DNA of 64,000 nt from contig JALXBI010000050.1 of the NCBI GenBank assembly GCA_026991555.1, positions 245 to 64,244 on the forward strand. Direction: 5' to 3'. The translations under genes were made by a program, and so were the position numbers. This DNA is from Candidatus Aminicenantes bacterium (GTDB lineage: Bacteria; Acidobacteriota; Aminicenantia; S016-38). The notes below the pieces were generated by a model. That model had not been told where the DNA came from. It saw nothing but the letters and a program-made list of their open reading frames with translations, and did no database searches. Below, in pieces: positions 1 to 15,473 of this stretch (positions are counted from its first letter, which is position 1; every line of letters starts with the position of its first letter).

Positions 1-27
1 GAAGCCAGAAAAAAGATAAGATACTAC

Positions 28-630
28 ATGGGGAAAGAGGAATTCAGGTGGGGTGAATGGACACTTCATGGAAATCCTCTTGATACAAAACCAAAAACAG
101 CTCTCAGAATTGATGATACAGAGTGGTTTTTAACAGGCGGTTTAGGAAGCGTTACATTATTAAGAGATATAGACGGAACCATCTACAAGATCGGTCATGC
201 TGCATTTGGACCCTACACTGTTTTAAGAGGTTTAAGAGATAATAAGTTTGATTTGTATGTGTTTGGAAAGCACATTCAAGACTTTGGAGGTTATAATTTG
301 AACTTTGCAGTTCTAAGACTCAGAGATGCTTACAAATACGGTTTTACCGGTTCTCAGGAAAGATACGATATTTACATGTTGGGGCTAGGCGGTGGCTCTA
401 TCCATGTATGGTTTGAAGTGCCGAAAGGTTATGAAGTTGTTGGTTTGATGCCTAGTATATCAAAAATTGTCCAAAAGGATAAAGATGGGGAAATCGTAAA
501 TGTATATGTTAGGGGAATGTATGTGGCATTGAAGAATAAAGAAACTGGGGAAGCATCTATCATTGGAGTTGGTGTTGGGGAGGATAAATATGGCATTTCC
601 GTGACTTTTCTCTTAGCCACGTCTAGGTGA
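28..630 (+). CDS. hypothetical protein, first gene of the low-GC accessory island; may extend 5' beyond the window edge
   Basis: ATG at 28 with an open frame back to position 1. No family recognised. The Gly-rich segment GVGVGEDKYGIS near the C-terminus loosely resembles a RAMP/Cas6 G-rich loop. Local GC is lower than the rest of the window by eye. Confidence 0.4.
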   Translation: MGKEEFRWGEWTLHGNPLDTKPKTALRIDDTEWFLTGGLGSVTLLRDIDGTIYKIGHAAFGPYTVLRGLRDNKFDLYVFGKHIQDFGGYNLNFAVLRLRDAYKYGFTGSQERYDIYMLGLGGGSIHVWFEVPKGYEVVGLMPSISKIVQKDKDGEIVNVYVRGMYVALKNKETGEASIIGVGVGEDKYGISVTFLLATSR

Positions 631-2228: not shown

Positions 2229-2471
2229 ATATCTCCCCTGGCGCCTATGTAATCCACATAGATGGAGTTTTCCTCCTCTTCCATCCAGAAAATTACCCTG
2301 TATTTCCCAACTCTGAACCTCATATACCCTTCCCATTCTCCAACCATCTTTTTCACCCTAAGAGTTTTAAAATCACCCTCAGCAAGGAGCAGGAGTCGTT
2401 GTTTGATTTTTTATCTCTGTGATGGGGCAAGTCTCTTCAGAAAACTGGCTGCTCGTGGGTGAACTTTTACT

Positions 2472-2663
2472 TTATATTTCTGCAAGGTTCACATAAGCGT
2501 TGGGGTCCTTTCTTTCCTTTTTGGCCTTTTTCAGGTGCTCTTTTACTTCCTCTTCAAGGTCCAGGCCCAGAAGTTCCTCTATTTTCTTGTATTCTTTCCA
2601 GGGAATGATTATCTCCGCAGGTTTTCCCTTTTCGTCGTAAATTATTTTCTTGTGAATCTTCAT
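2472..2663 (-). CDS. small antitoxin-like protein (Phd/YefM- or AbrB-like, uncertain), orphan
   Basis: An internal start MKIHKK is preceded by GGAGG. The KIIYDEKGKPAEIIIPWKEYKKIEELLG pattern resembles the DNA-binding antitoxin families. Confidence 0.3.
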   Translation of the reverse strand: MKIHKKIIYDEKGKPAEIIIPWKEYKKIEELLGLDLEEEVKEHLKKAKKERKDPNAYVNLAEI

Positions 2664-2827
2664 TCCTCTTCCTCCAGATACATTATACCATCTTCCCACC
2701 ATGCACGAAAAGGCACTGAGCCTCTCTTCCCTAAAAAGCGAAAAGGGAACAGACCATGAACCAAAGGTTCGGGCAAATTTTATTTGATTTTTTCATACAT
2801 TATCATATAATATATGAGGAAGTAATC

Positions 2828-3055
2828 ATGGTGAGAAAAACTGTTAACATTAGCGAAGATTTAATAAAAGAACTCAAGGTATATGCCAGGAAGGAATCCA
2901 GGGATTTTTCCAGCGCATTGAGGCACATCTTAAGGATAGGTCTTCTTGCCCTTCAGAACCCGGAACTTACAGCCAGGGAAATAATGGATATTCTGGAAGC
3001 AAAAGCGGAACTGGAAGAAGGTCTGATAGAGGAATTTACCCTTGAAGATATTTGA
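2828..3055 (+). CDS. ribbon-helix-helix (CopG-like) antitoxin
   Basis: ATG at 2828 (MVRKTVNISEDLIKELKVYARKE...). Short and basic, and it overlaps the following RelE-like gene by 14 nt. Confidence 0.55.
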   Translation: MVRKTVNISEDLIKELKVYARKESRDFSSALRHILRIGLLALQNPELTAREIMDILEAKAELEEGLIEEFTLEDI

Positions 3056-3269
3056 AACGAGAAAATTTCGGCAGTTGAGGAAAAAAATCAGGGATGATAG
3101 GGAGAAGCAAGCCCTTAAGAGGGCAATATTGGAGATCGTCCAGAACCCCCTGGCTGGCAAGAAGTTGAAGGGGGAATTCAAGGAATTTCGCAGTTTCCGA
3201 TATTTTTCCAGGGGCCAAGAAAGGAGACTTATCTATAAATACGAAAATCAGGCGCTTTACCTTATCTAA
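3042..3269 (+). CDS. relE: RelE/ParE-family toxin, C-terminus apparently truncated
   Basis: MKIFETRKF...LEIVQNPLAGKKLKGEFKEFRSFRY...RLIYKYENQALYLI matches the RelE/ParE pattern, but it stops before the usual C-terminal ighRkdvY segment. The last codons lie inside repeat block A1. Confidence 0.55.
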   Translation: MKIFETRKFRQLRKKIRDDREKQALKRAILEIVQNPLAGKKLKGEFKEFRSFRYFSRGQERRLIYKYENQALYLI

Positions 3270-3329
3270 AATTTTCTCTACTGGAGTTCTACATTCTATC
3301 AGTCCATTTTGCCCTGGAAGTAAAGTTCT
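3230..3329. repeat. split direct repeat copy A (38-nt block 3230-3267 and 31-nt block 3299-3329)
   Basis: Block 1 is tatctataaatacgaaaatcaggcgctttaccttatct. Block 2 is tcagtccattttgccctggaagtaaagttct. Both recur at 4284-4387. Confidence 0.7.
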
Positions 3330-3342
3330 GTGTCCCCAATCA

Positions 3343-3360
3343 GGGACAGGTCCGATTTTG
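3343..3360 (-). repeat. single inverted copy of the GGAC-CT-GTCC short-repeat family
   Basis: gggacaggtccgattttg is the near reverse complement of aaaattcggacctgtccc, which is repeated at 53251-53327 and 57560-57776. Confidence 0.5.
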
Positions 3361-3400
3361 ACCTTCCAATAAATCGGGTGACTCATGATAAAATAGTCTT

Positions 3401-3679
3401 ATGAAGGAAAAGAGATTAAAGGAGCTTATAGAAAAAAATAAGCCTCTTTTCTGGTGGATTAAGGAACCGGATAAAATAAGCGAAGAACTGGTGGTTGAGA
3501 CTATTCTAAACTACGGAACCAGAGAGAGCGTAAAGGAGCTTTTTGAAATTCTTGGAACGGAAAGGGTGGCGGAGATATTCTTTTCTCAGATAAAAAGAAA
3601 GAGGAAGAATTACCATCCGAGAACCATAAATTTTTTCACCCTTTATTTCAGCCATGCACGAAGAGATTCTAACACCTGA
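3401..3679 (+). CDS. small partner protein of the AbiEii-like toxin (putative antitoxin)
   Basis: ATG at 3401. Overlaps the downstream nucleotidyltransferase gene by 26 nt. Basic C-terminus. Confidence 0.3.
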   Translation: MKEKRLKELIEKNKPLFWWIKEPDKISEELVVETILNYGTRESVKELFEILGTERVAEIFFSQIKRKRKNYHPRTINFFTLYFSHARRDSNT

Positions 3680-4268
3680 ACAGAGCGAACTCCTCCCCTT
3701 GCTGAAGATGTTTTCCGAAGAATTTTATCTTGCTGGAGGAACTGCAATAGCTCTTTACCTCGGCCATAGAAGGTCCATTGATTTTGACCTTTTCACGAAA
3801 AAACTTCATCCCATGAGGGTAAAGAACAGGATAAAAAAATCAGGGTTCAATGTGGATAGCATAATATTTGAAAGCAGCGAGGAGCTCCACTTGGTGGTAA
3901 ACTCTGTCAAAATAAGTTTTGTGGAGTTTCCCTTTGATATTCCTCCTCCTGTGCTTTTCAAAGACATCATTACCCTTCCCTCCCTTTTAGATCTTGCAGC
4001 GATGAAGGCTTACGCTCTGGGAAGCAGGGCTAAATGGAAGGACTATGTGGATTTTTATTTTCTTTTAAAATACAAATTCACGGTGGAAGAAATCATAAAA
4101 AGGGCAAAGGAGATATTCTCAGGCTATTTCAACAGTAAGCTTTTCCTTGAACAATTGGCTTATTTTGAGGATATAGATTACAGCGAAAATGTGGATTTTA
4201 TAAAAGAGGCTCCTTCTGATGAGGAGATAAAGGAATTTTTAAGGGAGGTTTCCCTGCAGGATTTTTAG
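3654..4268 (+). CDS. AbiEii/AbiGii-family nucleotidyltransferase toxin (type IV TA / abortive-infection family)
   Basis: The N-terminal YLAGGTAIALYLGHRRSIDFDLF motif is typical of this nucleotidyltransferase family. Confidence 0.6.
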   Translation: MHEEILTPEQSELLPLLKMFSEEFYLAGGTAIALYLGHRRSIDFDLFTKKLHPMRVKNRIKKSGFNVDSIIFESSEELHLVVNSVKISFVEFPFDIPPPVLFKDIITLPSLLDLAAMKAYALGSRAKWKDYVDFYFLLKYKFTVEEIIKRAKEIFSGYFNSKLFLEQLAYFEDIDYSENVDFIKEAPSDEEIKEFLREVSLQDF

Positions 4269-4283
4269 CCCCCTTGCAAAGCC

Positions 4284-4387
4284 TATCTATAAATACGAAA
4301 ATCAGGCACTATACCTTATCTCCTTTGGTCCCAGGGAGAAGATTCTTTTTATAATCTCAGTCCATTTTGCCCTGGAAGTAAAGTTCT
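4284..4387. repeat. split direct repeat copy B (block 4284-4321, 36/38 identical to A1; block 4357-4387, 31/31 identical to A2)
   Basis: Direct comparison with 3230-3329. The internal spacers differ (31 vs 35 nt). Block B2 overlaps the stop of the minus-strand gene 4357..6132. Confidence 0.7.
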
Positions 4388-6132
4388 ATGCCCTTTACCG
4401 CCCGTAGGCCGTCGGCTATGGCTGATATGGCATCCGCCACCCTGTTGGCCACATCTCCTCCTGCGAATATCCCTTCCACCGAGGTCATCTGCCGGTGGTT
4501 TACCTTTATTCTTCCCCTTTCCACTTCCATTTTCTCGGCTATTTCCGGGGGAAGGAAACTCAGGTCAGCCTGCTGGCCTATGGCAACTATTATCCTGTCC
4601 ACCACAAGCTCGTATTCCTCCCCTTCTATAAGAACAGGTTTGGGCCTCTTTCCTGGCCCCTGGTCCACCATTTTCGCCTTTCCGTAAACCAGTTTGACTT
4701 TACCTTCAGGGGCATCCTCTACCCTTATGGGGATAATCTTTTCCCATATCCTCACCCCTTCTTCCTCTGCCCCTTCAATTTCCTCGTGGTCTGCGGGCAT
4801 ATCCACCTTGCGGCGGCGATAGGCTATGGTAACTTCGGCTCCCAGTCTGCGGGAAACCCTGGCAGCATCCATGGCCACATCCCCTCCACCTATGACCACC
4901 ACCTCTTTCCCAACCTCCACAGGTTCTTTGAAGTTAATCTTTCTGAGAAAATCTATGGCATAGATTACATTAGGATGGTCTTCTCCGGGAACCCCTAAGG
5001 TCCAGGGTTTCATAAGTCCAACCCCTATGTATATGGCATGGTGTTTTTTCATGAGTTCCCTGAACCTCTCCTGGTCCACGAAATAGTTAAGCTTAAGTTC
5101 CACACCCTGGCTAAGTATGAAATCCACTTGTTTTTTAAGGGATGGGAAGGGGAAGCGGTATTTGGGAATTCCCGCCATGGTCATGCCGCCCGCCTCAGGC
5201 ATGGCCTCGTAAACGGTTACCTTGTATCCCCGAAGGGCAAGGTAGTAGGCGGCGGTGAGCCCCCCAGGGCCTGCCCCTATTATTCCCACGGATTTGTCCT
5301 TGGGCTCTGCCTTCTTAACCTTTATTACCTGCTTCAGGTCAGAGAACCTTTCAGTGGCAAACCTCTTGAGCCATCTTATGGCAACGGGGTCGCCCTCGTG
5401 GCCTAAGGAACAATAGGATTCGCACCTTCTGGTGCAGACCTTTCCGCAGAGCTCCGCAAAGGGGTTGTTCTCATACATGATGTTCACGGACCTGGCGTAT
5501 TCCCCAGAGGCTATGGCCCTTATGTAATCGGGTATGTGCATGCGGTCAGGACATCCGGCTATACAGAGGCCACATCCCACGCAGCGGTCCGCCTCCCTGC
5601 GGGCCTCCTCCTCGGCATACCCCAGGACCACCTCGGCAAAGGTCTCCACCCTTTCTTCCGGAGGAAGTTCCCTCATGGGAACCCTGTGGTAATCGGTGAA
5701 ACTGTGCTCCTTGTCCTTCCTGTATCCCTTTTCCTTTTTCTCAAATCCCTTTATGTGATAACCGGGTATGTAAACGAAGTCGTCGGGGGTTTCCCTTACC
5801 CAAATGTATTCGTTGGTCATTCTCAAGGAGGTGGTGGGACACGAGTCCACGCAAAGGCCGCACCAGCAACACCTTCCGTAATCAATTCTGGGACGGAAGC
5901 CTGAATCCCCCTTCTTGGGCTCTATTCCCTCCACAGGGACCATATCTATGGCTTCATTGGGACAGACTGCGGCGCATGTTCCGCACCCTATGCATTTTTC
6001 AAGGTCATTTACATGGAATCCCCTGTATCTTTCGGCAGCCTCCCTGGAAACCTTGGGAACGAGGATGGTATGGGGCCTTTTGGCTATCTGCCTCCAGGCA
6101 CCTAAGGGTTTTAAAACTTCTTTGAGTCCCAT
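4357..6132 (-). CDS. fusion protein: NuoI/MbxN-like 2x[4Fe-4S] ferredoxin plus GltD/NfnB/SudA-like NAD(P)H-dependent FAD oxidoreductase
   Basis: N-terminus has CIGCGTCAAVCP and CCWCGLCVDSCP (a NuoI-type dicluster). Next come CVGCGLCIAGCP and CGKVCTRRCESYC (GltD N-terminal Fe-S region). Then GIIGAGPGGLTAAYYL (FAD Rossmann fold) and VVVIGGGDVAMDAA (NAD(P)H Rossmann fold). RBS AGGGAGG lies upstream. Confidence 0.7.
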   Translation of the reverse strand: MGLKEVLKPLGAWRQIAKRPHTILVPKVSREAAERYRGFHVNDLEKCIGCGTCAAVCPNEAIDMVPVEGIEPKKGDSGFRPRIDYGRCCWCGLCVDSCPTTSLRMTNEYIWVRETPDDFVYIPGYHIKGFEKKEKGYRKDKEHSFTDYHRVPMRELPPEERVETFAEVVLGYAEEEARREADRCVGCGLCIAGCPDRMHIPDYIRAIASGEYARSVNIMYENNPFAELCGKVCTRRCESYCSLGHEGDPVAIRWLKRFATERFSDLKQVIKVKKAEPKDKSVGIIGAGPGGLTAAYYLALRGYKVTVYEAMPEAGGMTMAGIPKYRFPFPSLKKQVDFILSQGVELKLNYFVDQERFRELMKKHHAIYIGVGLMKPWTLGVPGEDHPNVIYAIDFLRKINFKEPVEVGKEVVVIGGGDVAMDAARVSRRLGAEVTIAYRRRKVDMPADHEEIEGAEEEGVRIWEKIIPIRVEDAPEGKVKLVYGKAKMVDQGPGKRPKPVLIEGEEYELVVDRIIVAIGQQADLSFLPPEIAEKMEVERGRIKVNHRQMTSVEGIFAGGDVANRVADAISAIADGLRAVKGIELYFQGKMD

Positions 6133-6142
6133 TTTTTCCTCC

Positions 6143-7258
6143 CTATCTTTCCATTTCAGGCGGACAGGTCTGAAGGGAAACCATTATGGGCGCAACATCC
6201 GCTATGTTCTGCCCAACCAGCAACCTTTCAAGAAGGGTTATGCCGTGGACGAAGGAGGGTCCGTTGACATGAACCCTTCTGGGCTTGTCAGAGCCGTCGC
6301 TCACCATGTAGTAGCCGAATTCCCCCCTGGTGGCCTCGGATTTAACATAGGTTTCCCCAGGTGGAATTTTCCAGTAAAGGACATTGGGGAGCCGGGCAAG
6401 GAATTCTCCCTTGGGCATTTTCTCTATAATTTGCCTTATAAGGTTTATGCTCAGGTCTATTTCCCTTCGCCTTACAAGGAGCATGGCCCAGGCATCGCAG
6501 CCATCCTCTGTTATCACATCAAAATCAAGGTATGGATAAGCCTCGTAAGGATGGTCCTTCCTCACATCGTAGGGGAAACCACATGCCCTGGCCACAGGAC
6601 CGGTTATCCCCATCTCGTCCACCCAGTCCCTGGGAATTTTCGCAAGCCCCTTCAGCCTCTTCTGCACCACGGCATTTTCCATTATTATCTCGTCGTATTC
6701 AGGAAGCCTCTGCTCTATAATGTCCATTAACTTAAGAACCCTCTCCTCAAAGCCCTCGGGAAGGTCCTTCCTTACCCCTCCTGGCATTATGTAAATGTGA
6801 TAAATTCTTCCTCCTGTGAGTTCCTCAAAGAGGTCAAGGATGTAATCCCTGTCCCCAATTCCCCACTGCACAGGGGTGGAAAGTCCCATGGAGCCTGCTA
6901 TCCCTCCATACCACATGATGAACATCTGGAGGCGGGAAAGTTCAAGGACTAAGGTCCTTATCCACTTTGCCCTTTCAGGAATCTCTATGCCGGCCAGTTC
7001 CTCAAGGCCCCTGGCAAAGTTTTCCTCGTTGGTGTCAGGCTCTGGAACGCAAATTCTGCAGACTAAGGGGAAGCTTTTTATGTAAATACGCCTTTCCATT
7101 AATTTCTCAAATCCCCGGTGGAGGTATCCTATGTGGGTTTTTGCCCAGGTTATAGTATCCCCTTTAAGGAGAACCTCCACGCTCATGTTTCCGGTTACCC
7201 CTGGATGCTGGGGACCTATGAAGAGTCTTACTTCTTCCTTGCTCATTTTCTTCTCCAT
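6143..7258 (-). CDS. NuoD/[NiFe]-hydrogenase large-subunit homologue (MbxL/MbsL-like), incomplete NiFe ligand motifs
   Basis: FIGPQHPG...HIGYLHRGFEKL is the NuoD/EchE signature. The N-terminal motif is CRIC, followed by VPEP rather than the usual xxxH. The C-terminus ends QTCPPEMER instead of DPCxxCxxH/R. Confidence 0.75.
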   Translation of the reverse strand: MEKKMSKEEVRLFIGPQHPGVTGNMSVEVLLKGDTITWAKTHIGYLHRGFEKLMERRIYIKSFPLVCRICVPEPDTNEENFARGLEELAGIEIPERAKWIRTLVLELSRLQMFIMWYGGIAGSMGLSTPVQWGIGDRDYILDLFEELTGGRIYHIYIMPGGVRKDLPEGFEERVLKLMDIIEQRLPEYDEIIMENAVVQKRLKGLAKIPRDWVDEMGITGPVARACGFPYDVRKDHPYEAYPYLDFDVITEDGCDAWAMLLVRRREIDLSINLIRQIIEKMPKGEFLARLPNVLYWKIPPGETYVKSEATRGEFGYYMVSDGSDKPRRVHVNGPSFVHGITLLERLLVGQNIADVAPIMVSLQTCPPEMER

Positions 7259-7785
7259 TCGTCGTATTGCTCGGAAATCTGCTTTCTTATGATTATCCCG
7301 CTCTTGGGCTCCCTTTCCCCGAACTTCTCCATGGAATACTTCAGGGTATCAAAATCCCTTCTCATGGGTGGAATATCGTCCCAGTCCTCAAGGATGAGTT
7401 CCTCATGCTGGGTGGGATTCCCCTCAAAATCCACCCCGAACATCTCGTGAATCTCCCTTTCGTAGGCCTCTGCCTGGGGCCAGATTTTGTATATGGTCTG
7501 AAACTTAGGAGCCTCCCGGGGAATTTTCGTCTTAACCAATATGTTGTGCTTCTTTGAGGGATTCCACAGGTTATAGACCAGTTCAAATTTCCCCTCCTCT
7601 ATCCAGTCCACGCAGGAAATCATCACCAGGGTTTTATACCCCTCGTATTCTTTAAGGTAAACAAGGAGAGGAATGAGGTCCTTTTCTGTGGTCCCGACCA
7701 GGGCCAGATCCTCTCTTTTTTCCTGGCTCTGGAGAATCTCAAATTTTTCCTTCAATTTATCCAAAATCTCCATTTTCCACCTCAC
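7243..7785 (-). CDS. NuoC/MbxK-like subunit
   Basis: 180 aa, NADH dehydrogenase 30-kDa subunit-like. Sits between the small- and large-subunit genes. Confidence 0.7.
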   Translation of the reverse strand: MRWKMEILDKLKEKFEILQSQEKREDLALVGTTEKDLIPLLVYLKEYEGYKTLVMISCVDWIEEGKFELVYNLWNPSKKHNILVKTKIPREAPKFQTIYKIWPQAEAYEREIHEMFGVDFEGNPTQHEELILEDWDDIPPMRRDFDTLKYSMEKFGEREPKSGIIIRKQISEQYDEWRRK

Positions 7786-8360
7786 CAGTTATAATTGGGC
7801 ATTCGCCAGTTCTTTATTATTTTCCTCTGGTTCTCCCTATACCAATCCAGGTTTTCAATGTATTTTTTCCACCCATCTGCCTTTCCGCTGTCTATAAGCT
7901 CCTGAAGCCTCTTAAACCCGGCTAAGATGGCCTCGGGTCTGGGCATACATCCCGTAATCCAGACATCCACCGGAAGGTAAAGGTCCAGTCTGTTTATGGC
8001 ATTGTAGGAGTCGTAATACATTCCCCCGTTTATGGGACAGGCCCCTAAGGCCACCACATATTTGGGGGATTGCATCTGCTCGTAAACCCTTATGACCCTC
8101 TTAAGGGTTTTCACCGTGAGGTATCCGCTTATTATAAGAACATCTGCCTGACGGGGGGTCCCCACCATCCTCATGCCCAGCCTTTCGGCATCAAACCTGG
8201 AGGTGAAGGTGGGACGAAGTTCTATGGAACCGCAACCTGTCCCGTAGGCCACCACCCACAGGGACCTCGCCCTTGCCCAGTCGTTTATTTTTCTGAAAAC
8301 CCCACCGTAGGTCATTTTTTCTGGCTTTTCGTTCAGGAAATAATTTTTATCCTTTCCCAT
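7782..8360 (-). CDS. NuoB/hydrogenase small-subunit homologue (MbxJ-like), [4Fe-4S]
   Basis: GCGSIE...GTPRQADVLIISG...ALGACPINGG is the NuoB/group-4 small-subunit pattern. Confidence 0.8.
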   Translation of the reverse strand: MGKDKNYFLNEKPEKMTYGGVFRKINDWARARSLWVVAYGTGCGSIELRPTFTSRFDAERLGMRMVGTPRQADVLIISGYLTVKTLKRVIRVYEQMQSPKYVVALGACPINGGMYYDSYNAINRLDLYLPVDVWITGCMPRPEAILAGFKRLQELIDSGKADGWKKYIENLDWYRENQRKIIKNWRMPNYNW

Positions 8361-8363
8361 CTC

Positions 8364-9275
8364 TCACCTCACCAAATAAATCCTTACAAGGTCAATGAGC
8401 CCAAGCAGGCTTGGCCAGGTCCAGAAGAAAAGCACAGATTGCTCCAAGCGAAACCTGGGGAAAACATTGGTTATGAAAAGGGGCCACAGGAAAATCACGA
8501 AGGTTTTAACGAAAGCCCAGAGCAAATTGCTGGCCCCTCCTAAGAAAAGGTTCATGAAAAGGAGGTATTTGGCCACAGCGAAAACACTCCTTCCGGAAAA
8601 CATGTAGGAAAGGAAGGTGGAGCTATATTCTGTAGGAGGTCCTATGGCTATTTCCTGGGGAGCGAGAACCACCTGAAAGGGATAGGAACCCATCATTCCC
8701 AGGAGGCTTATGAAGGCCGCGGCTGCGGCAAAGGGATGGGTAAAGAGGTGCCAGTGGAGAATTCCTCCCTGCTGTGCCCTTACTATTCCTTCAATGGAGG
8801 TGGTCTTGTCCGCCACCATTAGGACCACCACAGAGATGACGAAGGGAAGTTCGTATCCCGCCATCTGGGAAAGTCCCCTGGTAACCCCTATGGGGGCGTG
8901 GGGATGACCGCTCTCTGCAGCCCCAAGGGCCATTCCTAAGCATCCCAGAACCATGAAATACATGAGGACTATCAGGTCACCGCCGAAGGAGAAATTGCTA
9001 AGATAGGGACTTCCCACCACAATGGGAACCAGAAGGAAGGTTCCGGCGCCTCCTACCAAGCGAAACATTGGGGCTAAGTAAAACATAACCCCGTGGGAAA
9101 TGGCAGTTTTCTTTCGGAATAGCTTCCAAAGGTCAATGAAATTCTGCCATATGGTCGGTCCCCTTCTGTTCTGCATCCTGGCGGTTATTTTCCTTGAAAC
9201 TCCGCCTAAGAAAAGCCCATAGGCAATCCCGCCCAGAAGGGCTAAAAATGCGTAAAATATCTTTGCCCACATCAT
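8364..9275 (-). CDS. NuoH/HyfC/MbxM-like membrane subunit
   Basis: RKITARMQNRRGPTIWQNFIDLWKLFRKK is the NuoH signature. Multiple TM segments. Confidence 0.75.
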   Translation of the reverse strand: MMWAKIFYAFLALLGGIAYGLFLGGVSRKITARMQNRRGPTIWQNFIDLWKLFRKKTAISHGVMFYLAPMFRLVGGAGTFLLVPIVVGSPYLSNFSFGGDLIVLMYFMVLGCLGMALGAAESGHPHAPIGVTRGLSQMAGYELPFVISVVVLMVADKTTSIEGIVRAQQGGILHWHLFTHPFAAAAAFISLLGMMGSYPFQVVLAPQEIAIGPPTEYSSTFLSYMFSGRSVFAVAKYLLFMNLFLGGASNLLWAFVKTFVIFLWPLFITNVFPRFRLEQSVLFFWTWPSLLGLIDLVRIYLVR

Positions 9276-12200
9276 TTCACCCCTGTAAAGGCATAAAGGA
9301 TAATGATTGAAATGAGAATCACATAGGCGGCGTAGGTGTTAACATCCCCTGTGTAAATTCTCCTTCCCATCTCAGCAAAGGCCCCAATCCATTCGTAAAT
9401 TCCCCTCCATATTTTGCTCACTAAAGGATAAATCAGCCATTTCACCGCCCTGCGGAAGTGGTCGTAAAGACCATAACCGAAGTGAAGGTCCTGCGGGGTG
9501 CGGGGAACCTCCCCTGAATAGCCCACATCCAGCTGACCTACCTTTCTTATTCTGGCCGAGGTGAGGGCGAAGAATACCAGGGCAAGGAGGAAGGAGCCCA
9601 CAAAGAAAACCATGAGGAAGAAGGCATTCCAGTGGCCGAGTTTAGAAACAATCCCCAGGGCCTTATGATAATGGAAACCTGGGTTTTCCATACCCGGAAT
9701 ACCGGAAAGAACTTTGTTTATCGGATTGAGAAGAAGATTGGGGAAAGCACCCAGAACTCCAAGAGGAATTAAAAGGATTACCTCCACCAAGGCTATTGGC
9801 CAGGGGGCTTCCTTTACATTCTCGTTTTCCTCCTGGAGCTGGCCCAAGAAAACCGCATGGAGAATCTTAAAGCAGTAAAGGAAGGCTAAGGTGGAGGCGA
9901 GAAAAGCCACCACGGTTATAAAAATCCATCCCTTCTCAATGAGGGCCGAATAAAGGAGCCATTTTGCTGCGAATCCCGAAAGGGGAGGAATCCCGGCTAA
10001 GGCTATTATGGCAAGAAGGGTGGCAAAGAAGGTAAGGGGCATTCTCCTTATAAGCCCTCCCATGTGGGGCAGGTAGGAGGTTCCTACCCTGTAAATTATC
10101 CCTGCTGCTGCCACGAATAGAAGTCCCTTGAAAATGAAATGGTTTACCGTATGGTAAAGGGCAGCGTTCCATCCTAAGGGAGTAAAAAGGGAAAGCCCTA
10201 TAAGGATATAGCCCACCTGTCCCACGGAGGAATAGGCAAGGAGTTTTTTAAGATCGTCCTGAAACACTGCAAGGAGGGTCATGAAAAAGGCGGTCAGTGC
10301 TCCAGCCCATCCAAGAAGGTAACGAAAACCTGCCCCGGAAAGAGCAGTAAGCACATAGAGGAAAACCAGGCCAGAGCCGAAAACCCCCATTTTGGACATT
10401 ATCCCGGAAAGCAGGGGCGTAAATTCGTCGGGACTTTCCCCGTAGGCATCCCTGGCCCATATGTGGAGCGGGGAGGTGGCCATTTTAACCAGGAAGGCTA
10501 AGGAAATAAGGACCGCTGGAAGAAGGCCGTAAAATTTACCCGGAGCCAAACTCAGGGAAGGAAGGAGGTAAATTCCCCCGAGCATGGCATAAGCCCCTGC
10601 TGCGGAAAATACCGCATAAATCCAGGCAGCCTTTTTCCCTTTTCCCATGTTTATAAGGAGGAAGGAAGCCCAGCTCATTATCTCCCAGAAAACGAATACC
10701 GAAAGCCAGGTGGTGGAAAGGACAAGCCCGGCCATGGAAAAGAGAACAACCAGGTAGGCAGGATAAAAGGATGAGGAAAGTTTTTTAGAGCCGGGATAGG
10801 TGGCCAAAAGAAGGACCGCACCTCCGAAAAGAACAAGGGCAAGGAAAAACCCGTGAAGGTCGGGTTTTATGTGCGGATAGAGGGAATATATCCCGTAGAC
10901 CAAAACCCCCAAGGAGGCTATCCACTGAAGCAGCCTTGAGGCTCCAAGGAAGTAAACCAGAAGGGAAATTCCAAGAAGGAGCAAAATTTCTGGTTTTACC
11001 GGAATGTGAATTTTATCGGTGAACATTCCCCAGACCACTGGCACAGAAGCAATAAGAATCAGGGAAGATATTAATGGAGAGGCCAGATTTCTTCCCACCT
11101 TCTTTCCTTCCCCCTCGGAGGCTATCCTGTAAAACCGGAAGTAATAAACCACCTCGGCCAGGGCCCCGAGAAGAACCAGCCCCACAACCCAGGAATAATT
11201 TCTGGGAATAGCGAAGATGAGAAGTATCTTGGCCCAGAATCCCGGGAAGGGAGGAACCCCTGCAATGGAGAAAACCGATGTGGAAAAGGAAAACTTGAAT
11301 ACGGGATTGGAGGCAAGAACACCCCTCCAGCCATCAATTTCCCTTTCCTTCACATTGTCCGCAAGGAGAAAGAGGGAGGACTTGGCGAAGGAGTGATTAA
11401 AGACCAGAAGGACCATGGCAAGGCCCATCATGAGCCTTGAGGACGAAGAGAACGAAGGATTCAGGAAAAATCCGGCTGCCAGAATCAGAAGTCCCAGCTG
11501 GGCCACCGAGGAATAACCGAGGAGCCTTCGGACATCCCTCTGCCTCCAGGCGAAAAACTGGCTTACTAAATAGGTCATCCCTCCAAAGAGAAGGGCCAAG
11601 TGGAAAAAGGAAAACAGGGGAAGATAATGGGCCGTTTTTACGAAAACCAGATAAAAGGCCTTTACCGCCGCCCCTGCCAGAAGGGCCACCACCACAGGGT
11701 CTGCCCCCTGATAAACATCTAAGGCCCAGCCGTTTACAGGGAAAACCTCCAGTTCAATAAGAAGCCCGGCAAGAATCATAAGGGTAATCAGGGCCAGAAC
11801 TGCGGAGGAAATTCCCCCGGCCAGCTTGCCGGCTATATCCAGCATGTTCAGGCTTCCGGTGGCCTTGTAAAGAAAAACCACTCCTAAAAGTATGAAGGTG
11901 GAACTTATGGAACCTATAACCATGTATTTAAAGGCAGCCTCAAGGGCCCTCTCATCCTTAGAAGAAGCCACAAGCCCGTAGGCTGCTATGGAAGTAATTT
12001 CCACGAAAACGAACAGGTTGAAAAAGTCTCCGGTGAAGCTTATCCCCGTGGCACCTAAGGAGAGAAGGAGAAACAGGATGAGAGCCTTCCCTTCGGGCTG
12101 GGGAAGCCCCCTTACGAACCAGTGTATAGCACCTAAAAGGGCAATGGTGAAAATTAGAAATCCTAAGGCAGCCTCCGCTTTTCCTACCAGCAGGTTAATT

Positions 12201-12415
12201 CCTATGGGAGGAGGGAAACCGCCAATCTTTACCAGGATGGGTTTTGCGATTTTGCCTGTGATAAAGCCATAGAAATTAAGCCCTGAGACTAAAAAGTCAA
12301 AGGCAAGGGTGAGGAAGAAGAAAACCCTTGCCCATATTCTGTTGTAAACCTGAAGTATGCCTATGAAGAAGGCCGAAGCTAACGTGACTCCGATTATAAT
12401 TATGGGATTTACCAT
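9272..12415 (-). CDS. fused tandem antiporter-like subunits (MrpD/NuoN-like plus MrpA/NuoL-like, equivalent to MbxH-MbxH')
   Basis: 1047 aa. There are two successive proton-pumping-subunit cores: LLGYSSVAQLGLLILA around residue 300 and LLAYSSVGQVGYILIG around residue 730. Each has about 14 TM segments. Confidence 0.75.
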   Translation of the reverse strand: MVNPIIIIGVTLASAFFIGILQVYNRIWARVFFFLTLAFDFLVSGLNFYGFITGKIAKPILVKIGGFPPPIGINLLVGKAEAALGFLIFTIALLGAIHWFVRGLPQPEGKALILFLLLSLGATGISFTGDFFNLFVFVEITSIAAYGLVASSKDERALEAAFKYMVIGSISSTFILLGVVFLYKATGSLNMLDIAGKLAGGISSAVLALITLMILAGLLIELEVFPVNGWALDVYQGADPVVVALLAGAAVKAFYLVFVKTAHYLPLFSFFHLALLFGGMTYLVSQFFAWRQRDVRRLLGYSSVAQLGLLILAAGFFLNPSFSSSSRLMMGLAMVLLVFNHSFAKSSLFLLADNVKEREIDGWRGVLASNPVFKFSFSTSVFSIAGVPPFPGFWAKILLIFAIPRNYSWVVGLVLLGALAEVVYYFRFYRIASEGEGKKVGRNLASPLISSLILIASVPVVWGMFTDKIHIPVKPEILLLLGISLLVYFLGASRLLQWIASLGVLVYGIYSLYPHIKPDLHGFFLALVLFGGAVLLLATYPGSKKLSSSFYPAYLVVLFSMAGLVLSTTWLSVFVFWEIMSWASFLLINMGKGKKAAWIYAVFSAAGAYAMLGGIYLLPSLSLAPGKFYGLLPAVLISLAFLVKMATSPLHIWARDAYGESPDEFTPLLSGIMSKMGVFGSGLVFLYVLTALSGAGFRYLLGWAGALTAFFMTLLAVFQDDLKKLLAYSSVGQVGYILIGLSLFTPLGWNAALYHTVNHFIFKGLLFVAAAGIIYRVGTSYLPHMGGLIRRMPLTFFATLLAIIALAGIPPLSGFAAKWLLYSALIEKGWIFITVVAFLASTLAFLYCFKILHAVFLGQLQEENENVKEAPWPIALVEVILLIPLGVLGAFPNLLLNPINKVLSGIPGMENPGFHYHKALGIVSKLGHWNAFFLMVFFVGSFLLALVFFALTSARIRKVGQLDVGYSGEVPRTPQDLHFGYGLYDHFRRAVKWLIYPLVSKIWRGIYEWIGAFAEMGRRIYTGDVNTYAAYVILISIIILYAFTGVK

Positions 12416-12762
12416 TTCAACTCCTTGTATTCTTCAATTTCAAGGGTTTTCTTTTTGGAATACATGAGCATTACAATGGAAAGGGCCACTGCAGTCACCG
12501 CCACCCCTATGACTATAGCCGTAAGGACCAGAGCCTGGGGAAGGGGATCCACCACCTTGGAGGATGTGTTAACCAGAAGGTCCTTGATGTTGACGATGGG
12601 AGCGGTCCTTCCGCGGATGAAACCTAATGAAATGATGAGCACATTAACTCCCGTGTCCATAAGGGAAAGCCCTATAACTATCTTCATTATGTTCCTTTTA
12701 ACCAAAACCGCATAAAGCCCTATGAGTATCAAGAGTATTGAAGCGACGAAGAAAGCCATCAT
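12409..12762 (-). CDS. MrpC/NuoK-like small membrane subunit
   Basis: 117 aa with three TM segments and the MnhC-like sequence pattern. Confidence 0.65.
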   Translation of the reverse strand: MMAFFVASILLILIGLYAVLVKRNIMKIVIGLSLMDTGVNVLIISLGFIRGRTAPIVNIKDLLVNTSSKVVDPLPQALVLTAIVIGVAVTAVALSIVMLMYSKKKTLEIEEYKELKW

Positions 12763-13451
12763 TCCTCCTTGGTGGTATTTATCATATCGGTTATAAGGCC
12801 CGAAAGTTCGGAGCCCACTTTAAACCCCACCGCCACATATATGAGTGGAATTACACCGGCAGAAAAAAGGCGGTTCCACTGACCCAGGGGAATTATGTTG
12901 TTGGCCAGAAAACTCCCACCCCAGATGAGGCCTGCAAAACCTATAAGAACGAAGGTAATTCCTGCAAGTCCCTCCACCGTGGAAAGGGCCCTGTGGTTGG
13001 GATGGAAGGTAAAGTGGGCAAGGAGCATCAGCATTACTGCAGAGGCAATGACCGTTCCTCCCTGGAACCCTCCCCCTGGGGTCAGGTGCCCGTGAATGAA
13101 TATGTAGGCACCGAAAAGAATAAGGAGAGGATAAAGGGTCTCGGAGGCAGTTTTGACGATGAGACTGGCCTCCCTTCTTTCGTATCTTCTCCTGCAACGG
13201 CATGTGGAAAGGAGGAAAGCCAGGGCAGTAGCCGCTAAGAAAAGCACGGTTACCTCGCCAAGGGTATCAAATCCCCTGTAGTTTACCACTATGGAGGTTA
13301 CCAGGTTGGAGCCACGGTTCTCCTCAATTCCCCTGTCCACATAATGCTTGGATACCCCCCACTTCTCCTTTCCGAAGGGAAAGGAGGAGGTTATTTTGGC
13401 CATAAAGAACCCGAGAAGGATGAGGAAAATTACCGCCAGCCATTTTCTCAT
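12759..13451 (-). CDS. MrpB/MnhB-domain membrane subunit
   Basis: LVTSIVVNYRGFDTLGEVTVLFLAA is the MnhB signature. Confidence 0.65.
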   Translation of the reverse strand: MRKWLAVIFLILLGFFMAKITSSFPFGKEKWGVSKHYVDRGIEENRGSNLVTSIVVNYRGFDTLGEVTVLFLAATALAFLLSTCRCRRRYERREASLIVKTASETLYPLLILFGAYIFIHGHLTPGGGFQGGTVIASAVMLMLLAHFTFHPNHRALSTVEGLAGITFVLIGFAGLIWGGSFLANNIIPLGQWNRLFSAGVIPLIYVAVGFKVGSELSGLITDMINTTKEE

Positions 13452-13693
13452 TTCTCATACCTCTCAGTTTTTCTTATGGCGATTATGAAAATAAGGGTGG
13501 TAAGTCCTGCACCTATGGCAGCTTCGGTCATGGCCACATCAGGAGCCTGAAGGTAAAGGTAAACTATGGAAGCCACCAAGGAAACGAAACCCGCTGCCAC
13601 CACCGCTGCCAGAAGGTCCTTGGTCTCCACAGCATATATGGCCAGACCCAGCATGAGGAAAAGAAGGAAAAGCATGAAATATTCAAGAATCAT
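13448..13693 (-). CDS. MbhD/MbxD-like small membrane subunit (MrpB N-terminal-like); start chosen at the internal Met
   Basis: The ORF track extends to 13798 but overlaps mrpG out of frame. MILEYFMLFLLFLMLGLAIY...AIGAGLTTLIF resembles a hydrogenase subunit-D/DUF4040 protein. Confidence 0.45.
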   Translation of the reverse strand: MILEYFMLFLLFLMLGLAIYAVETKDLLAAVVAAGFVSLVASIVYLYLQAPDVAMTEAAIGAGLTTLIFIIAIRKTERYEK

Positions 13694-14039
13694 TTTCCGC
13701 CTCCTTGAGTCCCCTTTCCTTATCCTCGGCATACCTGTCAAGAACAGAACCCTTGGCAAGGGGAATGCCTTTATTGTGGGAGGCCCTGGCCAGGGCATGG
13801 GAAGAGACAGGATTGGTAAGAAGGATGAAAAGGGAAATTATGGCCGTTTTAAAGAACCACTGGGGGTGGTAAATGCCAACCCCCATTATAAGGGAAAGGG
13901 CTCCTAAGGTTGTGGCCTTTGTTCCTGTCTGCATCCTGTTGTAAACATCAGGCATTCTGAGGAGCCCTATGCCTGCAAGAAACAGGAATAGGGACCCCAC
14001 CAGTATAAGAAACTCACCCAGGGCACGGTAAACCATCAA
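13683..14039 (-). CDS. MrpG/MnhG-like subunit
   Basis: RMPDVYNRMQTGTKATTLGA is the MnhG signature. Confidence 0.65.
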   Translation of the reverse strand: MMVYRALGEFLILVGSLFLFLAGIGLLRMPDVYNRMQTGTKATTLGALSLIMGVGIYHPQWFFKTAIISLFILLTNPVSSHALARASHNKGIPLAKGSVLDRYAEDKERGLKEAENDS

Positions 14040-14293
14040 ACACCTCCTTCTAAATACCGGGCAAGGGCTATAACCCCCAGGAAGGCAAGAACCGCATAAA
14101 CCAGGGCCACATCAAGGTAAATTGCCCTGTGGAAGATCTGGGAGAAAAGAACTATCATGGCCGTGGTTATGGTGGTGGCTGTATCCAGTCCCACTGCCCT
14201 GTCGGAAATGGTAGGCCCCTTCACAATCCTGTAAACCGCCAGCAAAGTGGCCAAACTAACAAGGGCGAAAACTATTATAAGGAGATTACTCAA
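14036..14293 (-). CDS. MrpF/MnhF-like subunit
   Basis: 85 aa, VYRIVKGPTISDRAVGLDT pattern. Confidence 0.65.
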   Translation of the reverse strand: MSNLLIIVFALVSLATLLAVYRIVKGPTISDRAVGLDTATTITTAMIVLFSQIFHRAIYLDVALVYAVLAFLGVIALARYLEGGV

Positions 14294-14771
14294 AGATCAC
14301 CTCCAGAAACCTCTCAAATCCCTTTACTATTTCCTGGGTGGCCGCTTCTATGTCCGGGCTTTTAACATCTATCCAGTGAATGTAAAGATACTGACCAACA
14401 ATATCAACGGAAAGGGTGCCCGGGGTCAGGGTTATGGAGTTGGCCAAAGCGAGTTTTCCTGCATTGGTTTTGAGCTTGGTTTTCACCTTCACTATACCCG
14501 GATTTATGGGAAGCCGGGGATTTACGACCCTGCTTGCCACATCCAGGTTTGCCTTTACCATGGCATAGAGGAAGTAGAAAAGGTAGATGAAGGCAAAAAC
14601 ATACCTTTTTGGCTGAAGCCATTTTTTAGGCTCAGGACCAGCCACCCCCGGGGCTATCATGCTAATGACCGCAGCGGTTATAAGGCCTACGGAAAGCTCC
14701 TGAGGGTCAAAGCTTCCGGTCATGGCCACCCAGAGGACGAAAAGCACAACTGTTGAAACGGCAACCTTCAT
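14286..14771 (-). CDS. MrpE/MnhE-like subunit
   Basis: 161 aa with two N-terminal TM segments and an MnhE-like C-terminal domain. Confidence 0.6.
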   Translation of the reverse strand: MKVAVSTVVLFVLWVAMTGSFDPQELSVGLITAAVISMIAPGVAGPEPKKWLQPKRYVFAFIYLFYFLYAMVKANLDVASRVVNPRLPINPGIVKVKTKLKTNAGKLALANSITLTPGTLSVDIVGQYLYIHWIDVKSPDIEAATQEIVKGFERFLEVIFE

Positions 14772-15397
14772 GCCACACTCCCTTTTTTAATCTTGTAGGC
14801 TAAATACTCTATTTCCGATGCTATTTCCACATAATTTATGACGACCCCTGGCGGGGTTTCTATTCCCTGAAGGGCAAAACTGAGAATTCCCCTTATCCCT
14901 GCCTTGGAGAGTAGGTTTACCGTCTCCTGAAGCCCCTCTGGGGGGATGGCAAGGACAGCAATTTGTGGTGCCTTTTCCCTGTAAAAGTTCTCAATTTCCC
15001 CTATATGTAAAACCTCCACCCCGTTTATCCTCTTTCCGATCTTTTTAGGGTTTCTGTCAAAGGCGGCCAGAACCTTAAAATAAGGTATCTCCCTCAGGTG
15101 GTGGATGAGGGCCCTGCCCAGGTTTCCGGCTCCCACAATTACAACTTTTATGGGTTCGTTTATTCCTATTATCTCCTCTATGGCCTTAGCGAGCTCCCCT
15201 ACCCTGTAGCCCTTCCCCCTGATGCCAAATTCACCAAAATAGGAAAGGTCCTTTCTCACCAAGGAGCCTGAGATACCGCAGCTTCGGGCAAGATCGGAAG
15301 ACTGGATCCATTCCTGGCCCTCAGCCTTAGCCTGGCGGAGACACCTGAGATAGGTGCTTAATCTCCTTATGCTAACTTCAGGTATGGTTATAGCCAT
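14768..15397 (-). CDS. rex: redox-sensing transcriptional repressor Rex (NADH/NAD+ sensor), first gene of the operon
   Basis: N-terminal wHTH IRRLSTYLRCL. Rossmann fold VVIVGAGNLGRAL plus a Rex C-terminal domain. Overlaps mrpE by 4 nt. Confidence 0.85.
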   Translation of the reverse strand: MAITIPEVSIRRLSTYLRCLRQAKAEGQEWIQSSDLARSCGISGSLVRKDLSYFGEFGIRGKGYRVGELAKAIEEIIGINEPIKVVIVGAGNLGRALIHHLREIPYFKVLAAFDRNPKKIGKRINGVEVLHIGEIENFYREKAPQIAVLAIPPEGLQETVNLLSKAGIRGILSFALQGIETPPGVVINYVEIASEIEYLAYKIKKGSVA

Positions 15398-15473
15398 TTT
15401 TCTTGTGAAAGTTCTAACTTAAACAAGGTGACTATGATACCACAAGATGAAAAAAAATCAAGGGTTTTTGTTT

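Follow-up and report, generated by a model that had tools for sequence, protein, structure and literature searches.

We analyzed the window, a 64,000-nucleotide stretch of DNA from a Candidatus Aminicenantes bacterium, and identified on its minus strand a Mrp-type 13-gene operon like that of the P. furiosus MBS, with a gene order (E-F-G-D-B-C-H-H'-M-J-K-L-N) that is conserved across phyla. The first gene of the operon, rex (14768..15397), shares 4 nt with the E gene and encodes a Rex redox-sensing repressor that scores 218 bits with NCBIfam NF003995, whose cut-off is 126. Species loci L060, L005 and L057 likewise have a Rex gene upstream of the operon. A promoter-like site lies upstream of rex (15461-15434, minus strand), and between its -10 element and the start codon of rex we detected an imperfect palindrome, TTGTTTAAG-N6-CTTTCACAA (15403..15426, minus strand), which is possibly a non-canonical Rex operator. 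A search allowing up to 3 mismatches to the canonical Rex box of 20 bp (TTGTGAA-N6-TTCACAA) gave no match upstream of rex; its sole match in the window lay elsewhere and was at chance level.

Downstream of rex, all on the minus strand, are the genes for the membrane arm. These encode MrpE-like (14286..14771; NCBIfam TIGR00942 and PRK08383), MrpF-like (14036..14293; NCBIfam PRK12604, above cut-off) and MrpG-like (13683..14039; Pfam PF03334) subunits, a MbhD-like subunit (13448..13798; PF13244 on residues 48-113), a MnhB/MbhE-like subunit (12759..13451; PF04039 and PF20501) and a MrpC/NuoK-like subunit (12409..12762; PF00420). Since the listed ORF of the MbhD-like gene overlaps the G gene, its true start is probably internal. 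The H and H' antiporter-like subunits are fused into a single protein of 1047 aa (9272..12415) with two Proton_antipo_M modules (PF00361 twice), matched by NCBIfam PRK08377 at residues 4-469 and by PRK08668 at residues 523-1041. Most relatives encode H and H' by separate genes, and the fusion recurs in species locus L012. The operon continues with the NuoH-like membrane anchor M (8364..9275; PF00146), the NuoB/MbsJ-like subunit J (7782..8360), the NuoC-like subunit K (7243..7785; PF00329), subunit L (6143..7258) and subunit N (4357..6132).

Subunit J had 6u8y_J as its best PDB match (E 8.8e-67) and contains three Cys in all (C43, C108 and C138), aligned with MbsJ C28, C93 and C123. Neither a tandem CC nor a CxxCxxC motif was present; the motif reads GTGCGS in the window, CTGCGG in MbsJ, TACC (GTACCF) in NdhK and CGGCNGC in HycG, and a Gly occupies the place of the non-ligating MbsJ C25. 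With only three Cys ligands, the proximal cluster of J would have one open Fe. Subunit N is fused to a NfnB/GltD-like flavoprotein, giving a protein of 591 aa (Pfam Fer4, Fer4_20 and Pyr_redox_2) in which residues ~6-118 are MbsN/NuoI-like with two [4Fe-4S] clusters and residues ~150-591 comprise two more [4Fe-4S] clusters and a FAD/NAD(P)H domain. All 16 cluster Cys (16/16) are present. Its PDB matches included 6u8y_N (E 2.7e-23), NfnB 4ylf_B (E 4.7e-83), NfnI 5jca_L and GltD 6s6s_G, and NCBIfam PRK13984 covers the fusion at full length. Of the 80 species loci, most carry a fused ORF of ~600 aa next to L.

The L gene encodes a 371-aa protein matching Pfam PF00346 (Complex1_49kDa, E 1e-71). 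The best PDB sequence match was 6U8Y_L, the MbsL of P. furiosus MBS (E 3.7e-102), and the bit scores fell from MbsL (345) through Nqo4 (240) to MbhL (155), with identities of 42.9% to MbsL, 35.0% to Nqo4, 28.6% to MbhL and 25.9% to HycE. Foldseek also ranked 6u8y_L first (TM 0.91) for an AlphaFold model of L; we limited the use of this model to the fold search, and its pLDDT was low at both motifs (~54 for residues 61-70 and 40-59 for residues 361-371). L also scored 410 bits against the NCBIfam NuoD model, whose cut-off is 360. Among the matches listed, the closest species-representative L was 75% identical and came from a MAG of Ca. Aminicenantes. A 5.6-kb ENA metagenome contig encodes an identical L protein. 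On sequence grounds, L is thus a hydrogenase descendant that serves as the L subunit in a bacterial membrane respiratory complex of the Mbx/MBS type, with its Ni-Fe site predicted to be lost. As such it is a further member of a protein type that is already known, and the locus brings no new principle.

Two motifs of L correspond to the ligand regions of [NiFe] hydrogenases: VCRICVPEPD near the N-terminus (7034..7063, minus strand) and CPPEMER at the C-terminus (6146..6166, minus strand), where R371 is the final residue, followed by the stop codon at 6143-6145. An earlier note on this DNA had given the ORF with the strings VCRICVPEP and QTCPPEMER, and translation reproduced all three exactly. 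We set the ligand register with a MAFFT alignment of HycE, MbhL, MbsL and Nqo4 and with BLASTP against E. coli HycE, in which Cys531 is a terminal Ni ligand (PMC9474812). C70 aligned with the first Cys of RxCGxC (HycE C241) and E73 with the second (HycE C244); in the C-terminal motif, aligned with DPCxxCxxR, C365 occupied ligand position 3 and E368 position 4. Cys was therefore present at two of the four ligand positions (1 and 3) and Glu at positions 2 and 4, and not, as the earlier note had allowed, at up to three of four. Its placing of a Glu at the fourth Cys was confirmed by the alignment. In the L1 motif (RxCGxCxxxH), L reads R68-I-C70-V-P-E73-P-D, with the second Cys replaced by Glu and the His missing; in the L2 motif (DPCxxCxx[HR]) it reads Q-T-C365-P-P-E368-M-E-R371, with Asp replaced by Gln (Q363) and the second Cys by Glu. 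The note was also right that the N-terminal CxxC lacks the RxCGxCxxxH context, but the pair itself is out of register, since C67 does not fall at a ligand position: it aligned with HycE D238, a Glu of MbhL and Leu82 of MbsL. By these alignments C67 is a lineage-specific extra Cys, and the CRIC pair is not homologous to the hydrogenase CxxC. We rejected the alternative that the ligands are shifted and all four Cys present, because the whole protein has only five Cys (67, 70, 226, 254 and 365), and C226 and C254 are variable among close homologues; the alignment with hydrogenase and NuoD-type large subunits, of the kind that the note had proposed, left its claim of an incomplete set standing.

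Other hydrogenase features of L were partly kept. The canopy Arg is retained (R311, HycE R478). The acidic proton-relay residues of the beta1-beta2 loop, E21 in MbhL and D192/E193 in HycE (PMC9474812, PMC7684303), are absent, T22 and G23 of L aligning with HycE D192/E193. T22 and V71 of L also occupy the columns of His38 and Tyr87 of Nqo4, the quinone head-group ligands in T. thermophilus numbering (PMC7684303). L ends at the Arg at which hydrogenase precursors undergo cleavage, and the N gene starts after a gap of 10 nt, which leaves L without a C-terminal extension. Such an extension, which the earlier note had regarded as incompatible with its claim, was absent from L, from all 80 species loci and from each of the 120 database homologues nearest to L. 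A frameshift masking an extension was considered and rejected, since the N gene begins 10 nt on and the same Arg is the last residue in 200 of 200 homologues examined. By tblastn on the 64-kb window, E. coli HypA-F and HycI gave nothing below E 0.3, and Pfam and NCBIfam scans found no Hyp or endopeptidase genes among the neighbouring genes of the window.

We then compared L with its relatives. In a set of 121 sequences reaching down to 59% identity, C70, E73, C365, P366, P367, E368 and the terminal R371 were invariant (121/121) and C67 was kept in 119. This invariance means that the C70/E73/C365/E368 pattern is not a chance product. It is nevertheless weak evidence of function, because 26% of all columns were invariant at that depth. 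Among the 80 species loci, CCECER was the commonest motif pattern (32/80), and other lineages with the same operon and fusion had the patterns CCEYER, CAEYER and VAEYER, in which one, two and all three Cys are gone. Ala or Tyr thus stands at the retained-Cys positions in other bacterial lineages of the family; Tyr replaces C365 in members of the Proteobacteria, Spirochaetes and Cloacimonadota. At least 592 species-representative genomes carried a Mbx fused to a NAD(P)H flavoprotein. The family is also present in Bacteroidales, Gallionellaceae, Methylococcales, Lysobacterales and Sinisalibacter, taxa not known for sulfur reduction.

Of the solved systems, the locus most resembles the MBS of P. 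furiosus. Both share the signatures RICVPEPD and, at the C-terminus, CPP[DE]x[DE]R; Cys only at [NiFe] positions 1 and 3; a J subunit whose cluster motif is shortened, with three Cys for the proximal cluster; and a full Mrp-type membrane arm (MrpE, F, G, MbhD, MnhB and MrpC) with two antiporter-like units in the same operon order. C70 and C365 aligned, in the PDB search, with C85 and C385 of MbsL, the two [NiFe]-ligand Cys that MbsL keeps (PMC7684303). The MbsL top matches, these two Cys, the 3-Cys J and the Mrp-linked operon bear out the view of the earlier note that the complex is not a standard H2-evolving Mbh and is like Mbx, Mbs or Ehr. The two systems differ in that L has the extra C67 where MbsL has Leu82, lacks any acidic residue in the beta1-beta2 loop, which in MbsL contains one Glu, and has a Gln (SLQTC) in place of the canopy Asp of MbsL (SLDNC). 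In addition, even the non-ligating Cys25 is missing from J of the window, the H and H' subunits form one protein, and N carries a ~440-residue NfnB/GltD-like domain; MbsN of archaea, by contrast, stands alone and accepts electrons from ferredoxin. Because N is not a stand-alone MbsN, we assigned the complex to the "mbx-like" variant known from bacteria (PMC4758237). In the mbx-like operons of Thermotoga and proteobacteria, a gltD-type flavoprotein is found at the NuoI position and NuoD has vestigial first and third Cys (Degli Esposti 2015, PMC4758237). This fused-N layout, described before in bacteria (PMC4758237; T. maritima MBX, PMC9431562), is exactly what the window and most of the 80 species loci show. 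The window differs in coming from an uncultured lineage and in having rex as the first operon gene; it also has no rubrerythrin gene at the operon end, where mbx-like operons often carry one (PMC4758237).

L was also compared with more distant hydrogenase and complex I subunits. With the group 4 hydrogenases (MbhL 6CFW_L and HycE 7Z0S_E; 26-29% identity) L shares the fold, the canopy Arg, the GPxH beta1-beta2 region and the Arg that ends the mature protein. Missing from it are two Cys ligands, the DPC Asp, the L1 His and the proton-relay Glu, as well as the extension, and no protease gene is nearby. With NuoD/Nqo4 of complex I, L has in common an acidic residue at the fourth ligand position and an Arg as the last residue (GDVDR against PPEMER), but it keeps two hydrogenase Cys that are lost there, and its partners are of the Mrp/MBS type.

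Our preferred reading, with a probability of roughly 0.6, is that L forms part of a Mrp-linked, complex-I-like ion-translocating oxidoreductase without a Ni-Fe site, in which NAD(P)H-linked chemistry would take place at the J cluster, probably with sulfane sulfur as acceptor. L, J and the NuoH-like anchor M would form a substrate chamber, and by analogy with P. furiosus MBS the chemistry in it would occur at the proximal [4Fe-4S] cluster of J. Electrons would be exchanged with NAD(P)H and not with ferredoxin alone, passing by way of the NfnB/GltD-like domain, with its FAD and two [4Fe-4S] clusters, and then the two N clusters to the J cluster, and turnover would be coupled to H+ or Na+ movement via the H-H' and Mrp modules. 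The co-transcribed Rex would set expression by the NADH/NAD+ ratio. The acceptor is the least certain step; as in MBS, it may most likely be a hydrophobic sulfane-sulfur compound such as polysulfide. In MBS, the 3-Cys proximal cluster of MbsJ has been named as the site of catalysis, and a C85A/C385A mutant of MbsL kept full DMTS reductase activity (PMC7684303). In T. maritima, mbxA was induced 4.4-fold by S0 (PMC9431562). In the literature searched, we found no GltD-fused bacterial Mbx that had been purified, solved or assayed for activity. Two observations were counted against the reading, namely that the family occurs in lineages of non-sulfur-reducers and that profile scans detected no sulfur-metabolism genes within the 64-kb window. 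From standard potentials, the step from NAD(P)H to polysulfide yields only ~50-60 mV; this is a small driving force for a membrane arm of the full MBS type with its two antiporters and was likewise counted against the reading.

The energetics bear on a different proposal, that the complex is a Rnf-like ion-translocating ferredoxin:NAD(P)+ oxidoreductase that reduces NAD(P)+ at the GltD/NfnB-like domain and has no sulfur substrate. The span from ferredoxin to NAD(P)+ is ~160 mV, which suits a two-pump membrane arm better than that from NAD(P)H to S0. The NAD(P)(H) site of the fused NfnB-like domain, the many non-sulfur-reducing taxa that carry the family and the control by Rex, which suits NAD(H) balancing, all fit this role, which was the original proposal for Mbx and is the function assumed in PMC4758237 and in a Mesotoga preprint (10.1101/322537). 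We nonetheless consider it unlikely, as P. furiosus Mbx has since been re-assigned to sulfane reduction (PMC7684303), coupling in all solved relatives is powered by reactions in the chamber and at the proximal cluster (PMC7684303, PMC8165549), and J, L and M would be bypassed despite the strong conservation of the 3-Cys open-Fe proximal cluster and of the chamber-forming L. The complex could also be an alternative NAD(P)H:quinone oxidoreductase, a complex-I-like pump with a GltD-type flavoprotein in place of the NuoEFG input module. The score of L above the NuoD cut-off, the entrance of the MBS chamber, which equals that of complex I in width (PMC7684303), quinone respiration in many host lineages and the change of C365 to Tyr in some of them would agree with this; it is made improbable by the replacement of Nqo4 H38 and Y87, by the lack in J of the tandem CC of NuoB/NdhK, and by a membrane arm that is of the Mrp/MBS and not the Nuo type.

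Two further readings give L an active site of its own. In one, the high conservation of C67, C70, E73, C365 and E368 down to 59% identity, together with CCECER as the commonest pattern, would reflect a new functional site, either a mononuclear metal or a Cys-persulfide relay, on which catalysis in the clade would depend. The invariant fraction of the same alignment, the lineages that keep operon and fusion though their Cys are lost, and the full activity of MbsL C85A/C385A in DMTS reduction (PMC7684303) make this very improbable. The activity of this mutant, the placing of catalysis at the MbsJ cluster and the Cys replacements in other lineages also mean that the altered active site in L that the earlier note had suggested is not favoured. 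A broader version, in which the GltD/NfnB-fused bacterial Mbx are a distinct class of NAD(P)H-linked ion pumps whose acceptor is neither protons nor quinone nor necessarily sulfur, and in which the C67-x-x-C70/C365 triad and the two Glu form a functional substrate or metal site in the subclade of the window and are not a relic, we regard as distinctly improbable. In the other reading, L would be a working H2-evolving hydrogenase with an odd Cys/Glu-ligated metal centre. Its descent from the large subunit of group-4 [NiFe] hydrogenases is clear from sequence comparison (BLASTP with HycE, E 4e-37; MbhL match), and the canopy Arg is kept. This reading is already contradicted by the sequence tests and has next to no probability: two of four ligands are gone, as are the L1 His, the acidic beta1-beta2 residues (PMC9474812) and the canopy Asp, and both the C-terminal extension and any Hyp/HycI homologue within the window are missing.

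The preferred reading of L as a subunit that has lost its Ni-Fe site has consequences for annotation. Standard models would call L a NuoD despite its missing quinone ligands, and hydrogenase screens based on homology alone would miscall it too. The acceptor and ion stoichiometry of the very widespread flavoprotein-fused Mbx family pose a bioenergetic question. L itself illustrates the stepwise decay of a [NiFe] hydrogenase subunit toward complex I, with two ligand positions gone here and three or all four gone in sister lineages with the same operon.

The large-subunit gene, here L, lies at 6143..7258 on the minus strand and encodes 371 aa (Pfam Complex1_49kDa, E 1e-71). These coordinates and both strings quoted in the earlier note were exact: VCRICVPEPD is encoded at 7034-7063 and the stop codon (6143-6145) directly follows LQTCPPEMER (both minus strand, translations exact), with the next gene starting 10 nt downstream of the stop. 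Cysteine occurs five times in L (67, 70, 226, 254 and 365). We set the register of the four [NiFe] ligand positions by a MAFFT alignment plus BLASTP of L against HycE from E. coli MG1655; MbhL of P. furiosus and the complex I subunit Nqo4 were recovered from printed PDB alignments. The N-terminal motif is LVCRICVPEPD in L, LSDRVCGICGF in HycE, LAERMCGICSF in MbhL, YTPRMDYLHSF in Nqo4 and LLLRICVPEPD in MbsL, the large subunit of the P. furiosus sulfane sulfur reductase MBS. The corresponding C-terminal motifs are QTCPPEMER, DPCYSCTDR (followed by a 32-residue extension), DPCLSCTDR, DPVMGDVDR and DNCPPDIDR. Positions 1 and 2 are thereby C70 and E73 of L, and positions 3 and 4 are C365, aligned with the terminal Ni ligand Cys531 of HycE (PMC9474812), and E368. 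Thus, Cys is kept at positions 1 and 3 (C70 and C365), two of the four rather than up to three as had been proposed, while the Glu noted in place of the fourth Cys is indeed there and is accompanied by another at position 2. The CxxC pair noted earlier is real as a string but is not the hydrogenase CxxC, since C67 aligned with Asp/Glu in hydrogenases and with Leu82 in MbsL. In addition, the acidic residues of the beta1-beta2 loop (HycE D192/E193, MbhL E21) are T22/G23 in L, and the DPC-motif Asp (HycE D529), described as strictly conserved in hydrogenases as well as complex I (PMC9474812) and kept by MbsL, is Gln (Q363). L, a degenerate hydrogenase subunit, is unable to bind a canonical Ni-Fe centre. 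The Q363 column (window 6166-6172, minus strand) is G/T/Q among the 120 nearest homologues.

A PDB sequence search returned MbsL (6U8Y chain L) as the closest solved relative of L (E 3.7e-102, 345 bits), whereas Nqo4 of T. thermophilus (240 bits), MbhL of P. furiosus (155) and HycE of E. coli (114) scored far lower; the pairwise identities were 42.9%, 35.0%, 28.6% and 25.9%, respectively. The first fold match of the AlphaFold model (mean pLDDT 82.9) was also 6u8y_L (TM 0.91). L and MbsL have RICVPEPD in common, as well as a C-terminal CPP-[DE]-x-[DE]-R, and C70 and C365, counted along the PDB-search alignment, correspond to C85 and C385 of MbsL; of the four [NiFe] cysteines, MBS keeps just these two (Yu et al. 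2020, PMC7684303). L scored 410 bits against the NCBIfam model 'NADH-quinone oxidoreductase subunit D' (curated cut-off 360), yet the quinone ligands His38 and Tyr87 of Nqo4 are T22 and V71 in L and the operon is of the Mrp type, so automatic annotation will miscall it as NuoD.

ORF listing with Pfam and NCBIfam scans placed L in a 13-gene minus-strand operon in the order rex, MrpE, MrpF, MrpG, MbhD-like, MnhB-like, MrpC/NuoK-like, H+H' fusion, M (NuoH-like), J (NuoB-like), K (NuoC-like), L and N, encoding a complete Mrp/MBS membrane arm; the order E-F-G-D-B-C-H-H'-M-J-K-L-N is repeated across phyla. The top match of J was MbsJ (E 8.8e-67). J has only three cysteines (C43, C108 and C138), which aligned with the MbsJ ligands C28, C93 and C123; the non-ligating C25 of MbsJ is Gly, and the motif has neither the tandem CC of NuoB/NdhK nor HycG's longer CxxCxxC. 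Yu et al. ascribed MBS catalysis to a proximal [4Fe-4S] cluster in which one Fe has no Cys ligand (PMC7684303), and J, as judged from its sequence, has this feature in a three-Cys proximal cluster. The earlier proposal that the complex is Mbx/Mbs-like and not an Mbh is therefore supported by the sequence and fold matches to MbsL, the MBS-type J and the Mrp-type operon. The MbsH-like and MbsH'-like antiporter-like subunits form one 1047-aa ORF (9272-12415, minus strand); most relatives encode the two separately, and the fusion occurs again in a Thermoanaerobaculia MAG. Since the MbhD-like ORF (13448-13798) overlaps the MrpG-like gene (13683-14039, both minus strand) by 116 nt as listed and its Pfam match begins at residue 48, its translation probably begins at an internal Met around MILEYF.... 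The first gene (14768-15397, minus strand) encodes the redox-sensing repressor Rex and has a 4-nt overlap with the MrpE-like gene. Upstream of it is an imperfect palindrome, TTGTTTAAG-N6-CTTTCACAA (15403-15426), with a perfect TTCACAA half-site; a promoter-like -10 element lies just ahead of the palindrome and the rex start codon follows it. Rex also precedes the operon in a Hydrothermota locus, a Fermentibacteraceae locus and locus L057.

We compared L with its 120 nearest database homologues (59-100% identity). C70, E73, C365, P366, P367, E368 and the terminal R371 were invariant in all, and C67 occurred in 119 of the 121 sequences. A C-terminal extension, named in the earlier note as a refuting feature, was found neither in L nor in any of the 120. 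Relatives of L occur in at least 592 genomes (scan of one genome per species); among the matches listed, the best was a Ca. Aminicenantes MAG (75% identity), and further hosts were Thermoanaerobaculia, Ignavibacteria/Melioribacter, Bacteroidales, Spirochaetes, Cloacimonadota, Gammaproteobacteria, Sulfurovum and a DHVE2 archaeon. In a MAFFT alignment of the best 80 of these at least 592 loci, positions 67/70/73/365/368/371 read CCECER in 32, CCEYER in 17, CAEYER in nine, ICECER in six and VAEYER in four, with minor variants in 12; throughout, the residues at 73 and 368 stayed acidic and unchanged, as did the terminal Arg. Members from Proteobacteria, Spirochaetes and Cloacimonadota that share the operon (within loci L013-L080) had a recurrent Tyr in place of the position-3 Cys (CCEYER), and in these position 1 was often Ala (CAEYER) or all three cysteines were lost (VAEYER). 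The homologues show the Ni-Fe site decaying step by step inside one family. Cysteine loss from the same operon indicates that these residues are dispensable in sister lineages; together with the MBS C85A/C385A mutant, which kept activity (PMC7684303), this argues for reading the cysteines of L as relic or accessory and not as part of a new catalytic metal site, and so against the altered active site suggested earlier.

The main difference from archaeal MBS is in N (4357-6132, minus strand; 591 aa), where an MbsN/NuoI-like 2x[4Fe-4S] domain (residues 6-118) is joined in one chain to an NfnB/NfnI-L/GltD-like module that carries two more [4Fe-4S] motifs together with an FAD/NAD(P)H domain. This module matched T. 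maritima NfnB (4ylf_B) at E 4.7e-83, and NCBIfam PRK13984 ('putative oxidoreductase') is a full-length model for this architecture. The fusion implies NAD(P)H, and not ferredoxin alone, as the redox partner. Its second Rossmann region contains ...AYRRRKVDMPA, which in alignment resembles the YRR of the NADPH-dependent T. maritima NfnB; no NfnA/SudB-like partner gene was found downstream of N. A fused ORF of ~600 aa adjoins L in most of the best 80 of at least 592 loci, with N-only forms in Sulfurovum, a Synergistota MAG, a Chromatiaceae MAG and the DHVE2 archaeon. An 'mbx-like' operon with a gltD-related flavoprotein is known from Thermotoga and proteobacteria, and vestigial first and third cysteines were noted there as well (PMC4758237); T. 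maritima mbxA was induced 4.4-fold by S0 (PMC9431562). The L complex belongs to these bacterial GltD-fused Mbx/MBS-like complexes, a layout already described.

HypA-F and HycI (E. coli queries) gave no tblastn match within the 64-kb window, which is weak evidence as it covers this part of the genome only. Domain scans of the other genes in the window found only two-component regulators and type IV pilus, LPS, housekeeping and transporter genes. Immediately downstream of the operon (window 1-4300), G+C falls from ~0.50 to 0.37-0.40 and several small ORFs lie on both strands; two larger ones (28-630 and 627-2228) had no NCBIfam match. This segment may be foreign or mobile.

The cofactor motifs are complete for one FAD and five [4Fe-4S] clusters. 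Electrons would be exchanged with NAD(P)H through the FAD, the GltD-domain clusters, the N clusters and the J cluster, and the J cluster, through its open Fe, would be the site of substrate reduction inside an L/J/M chamber; this reduction would drive ion translocation. By homology with MBS, the acceptor is most likely sulfane sulfur. This assignment is made less certain by the small potential span from NAD(P)H to polysulfide, the many non-sulfur-reducing taxa in which the family is found and the lack of sulfur genes in domain scans of the 64-kb window. Less likely rival readings are a ferredoxin:NAD(P)+ role and a quinone-reducing role.
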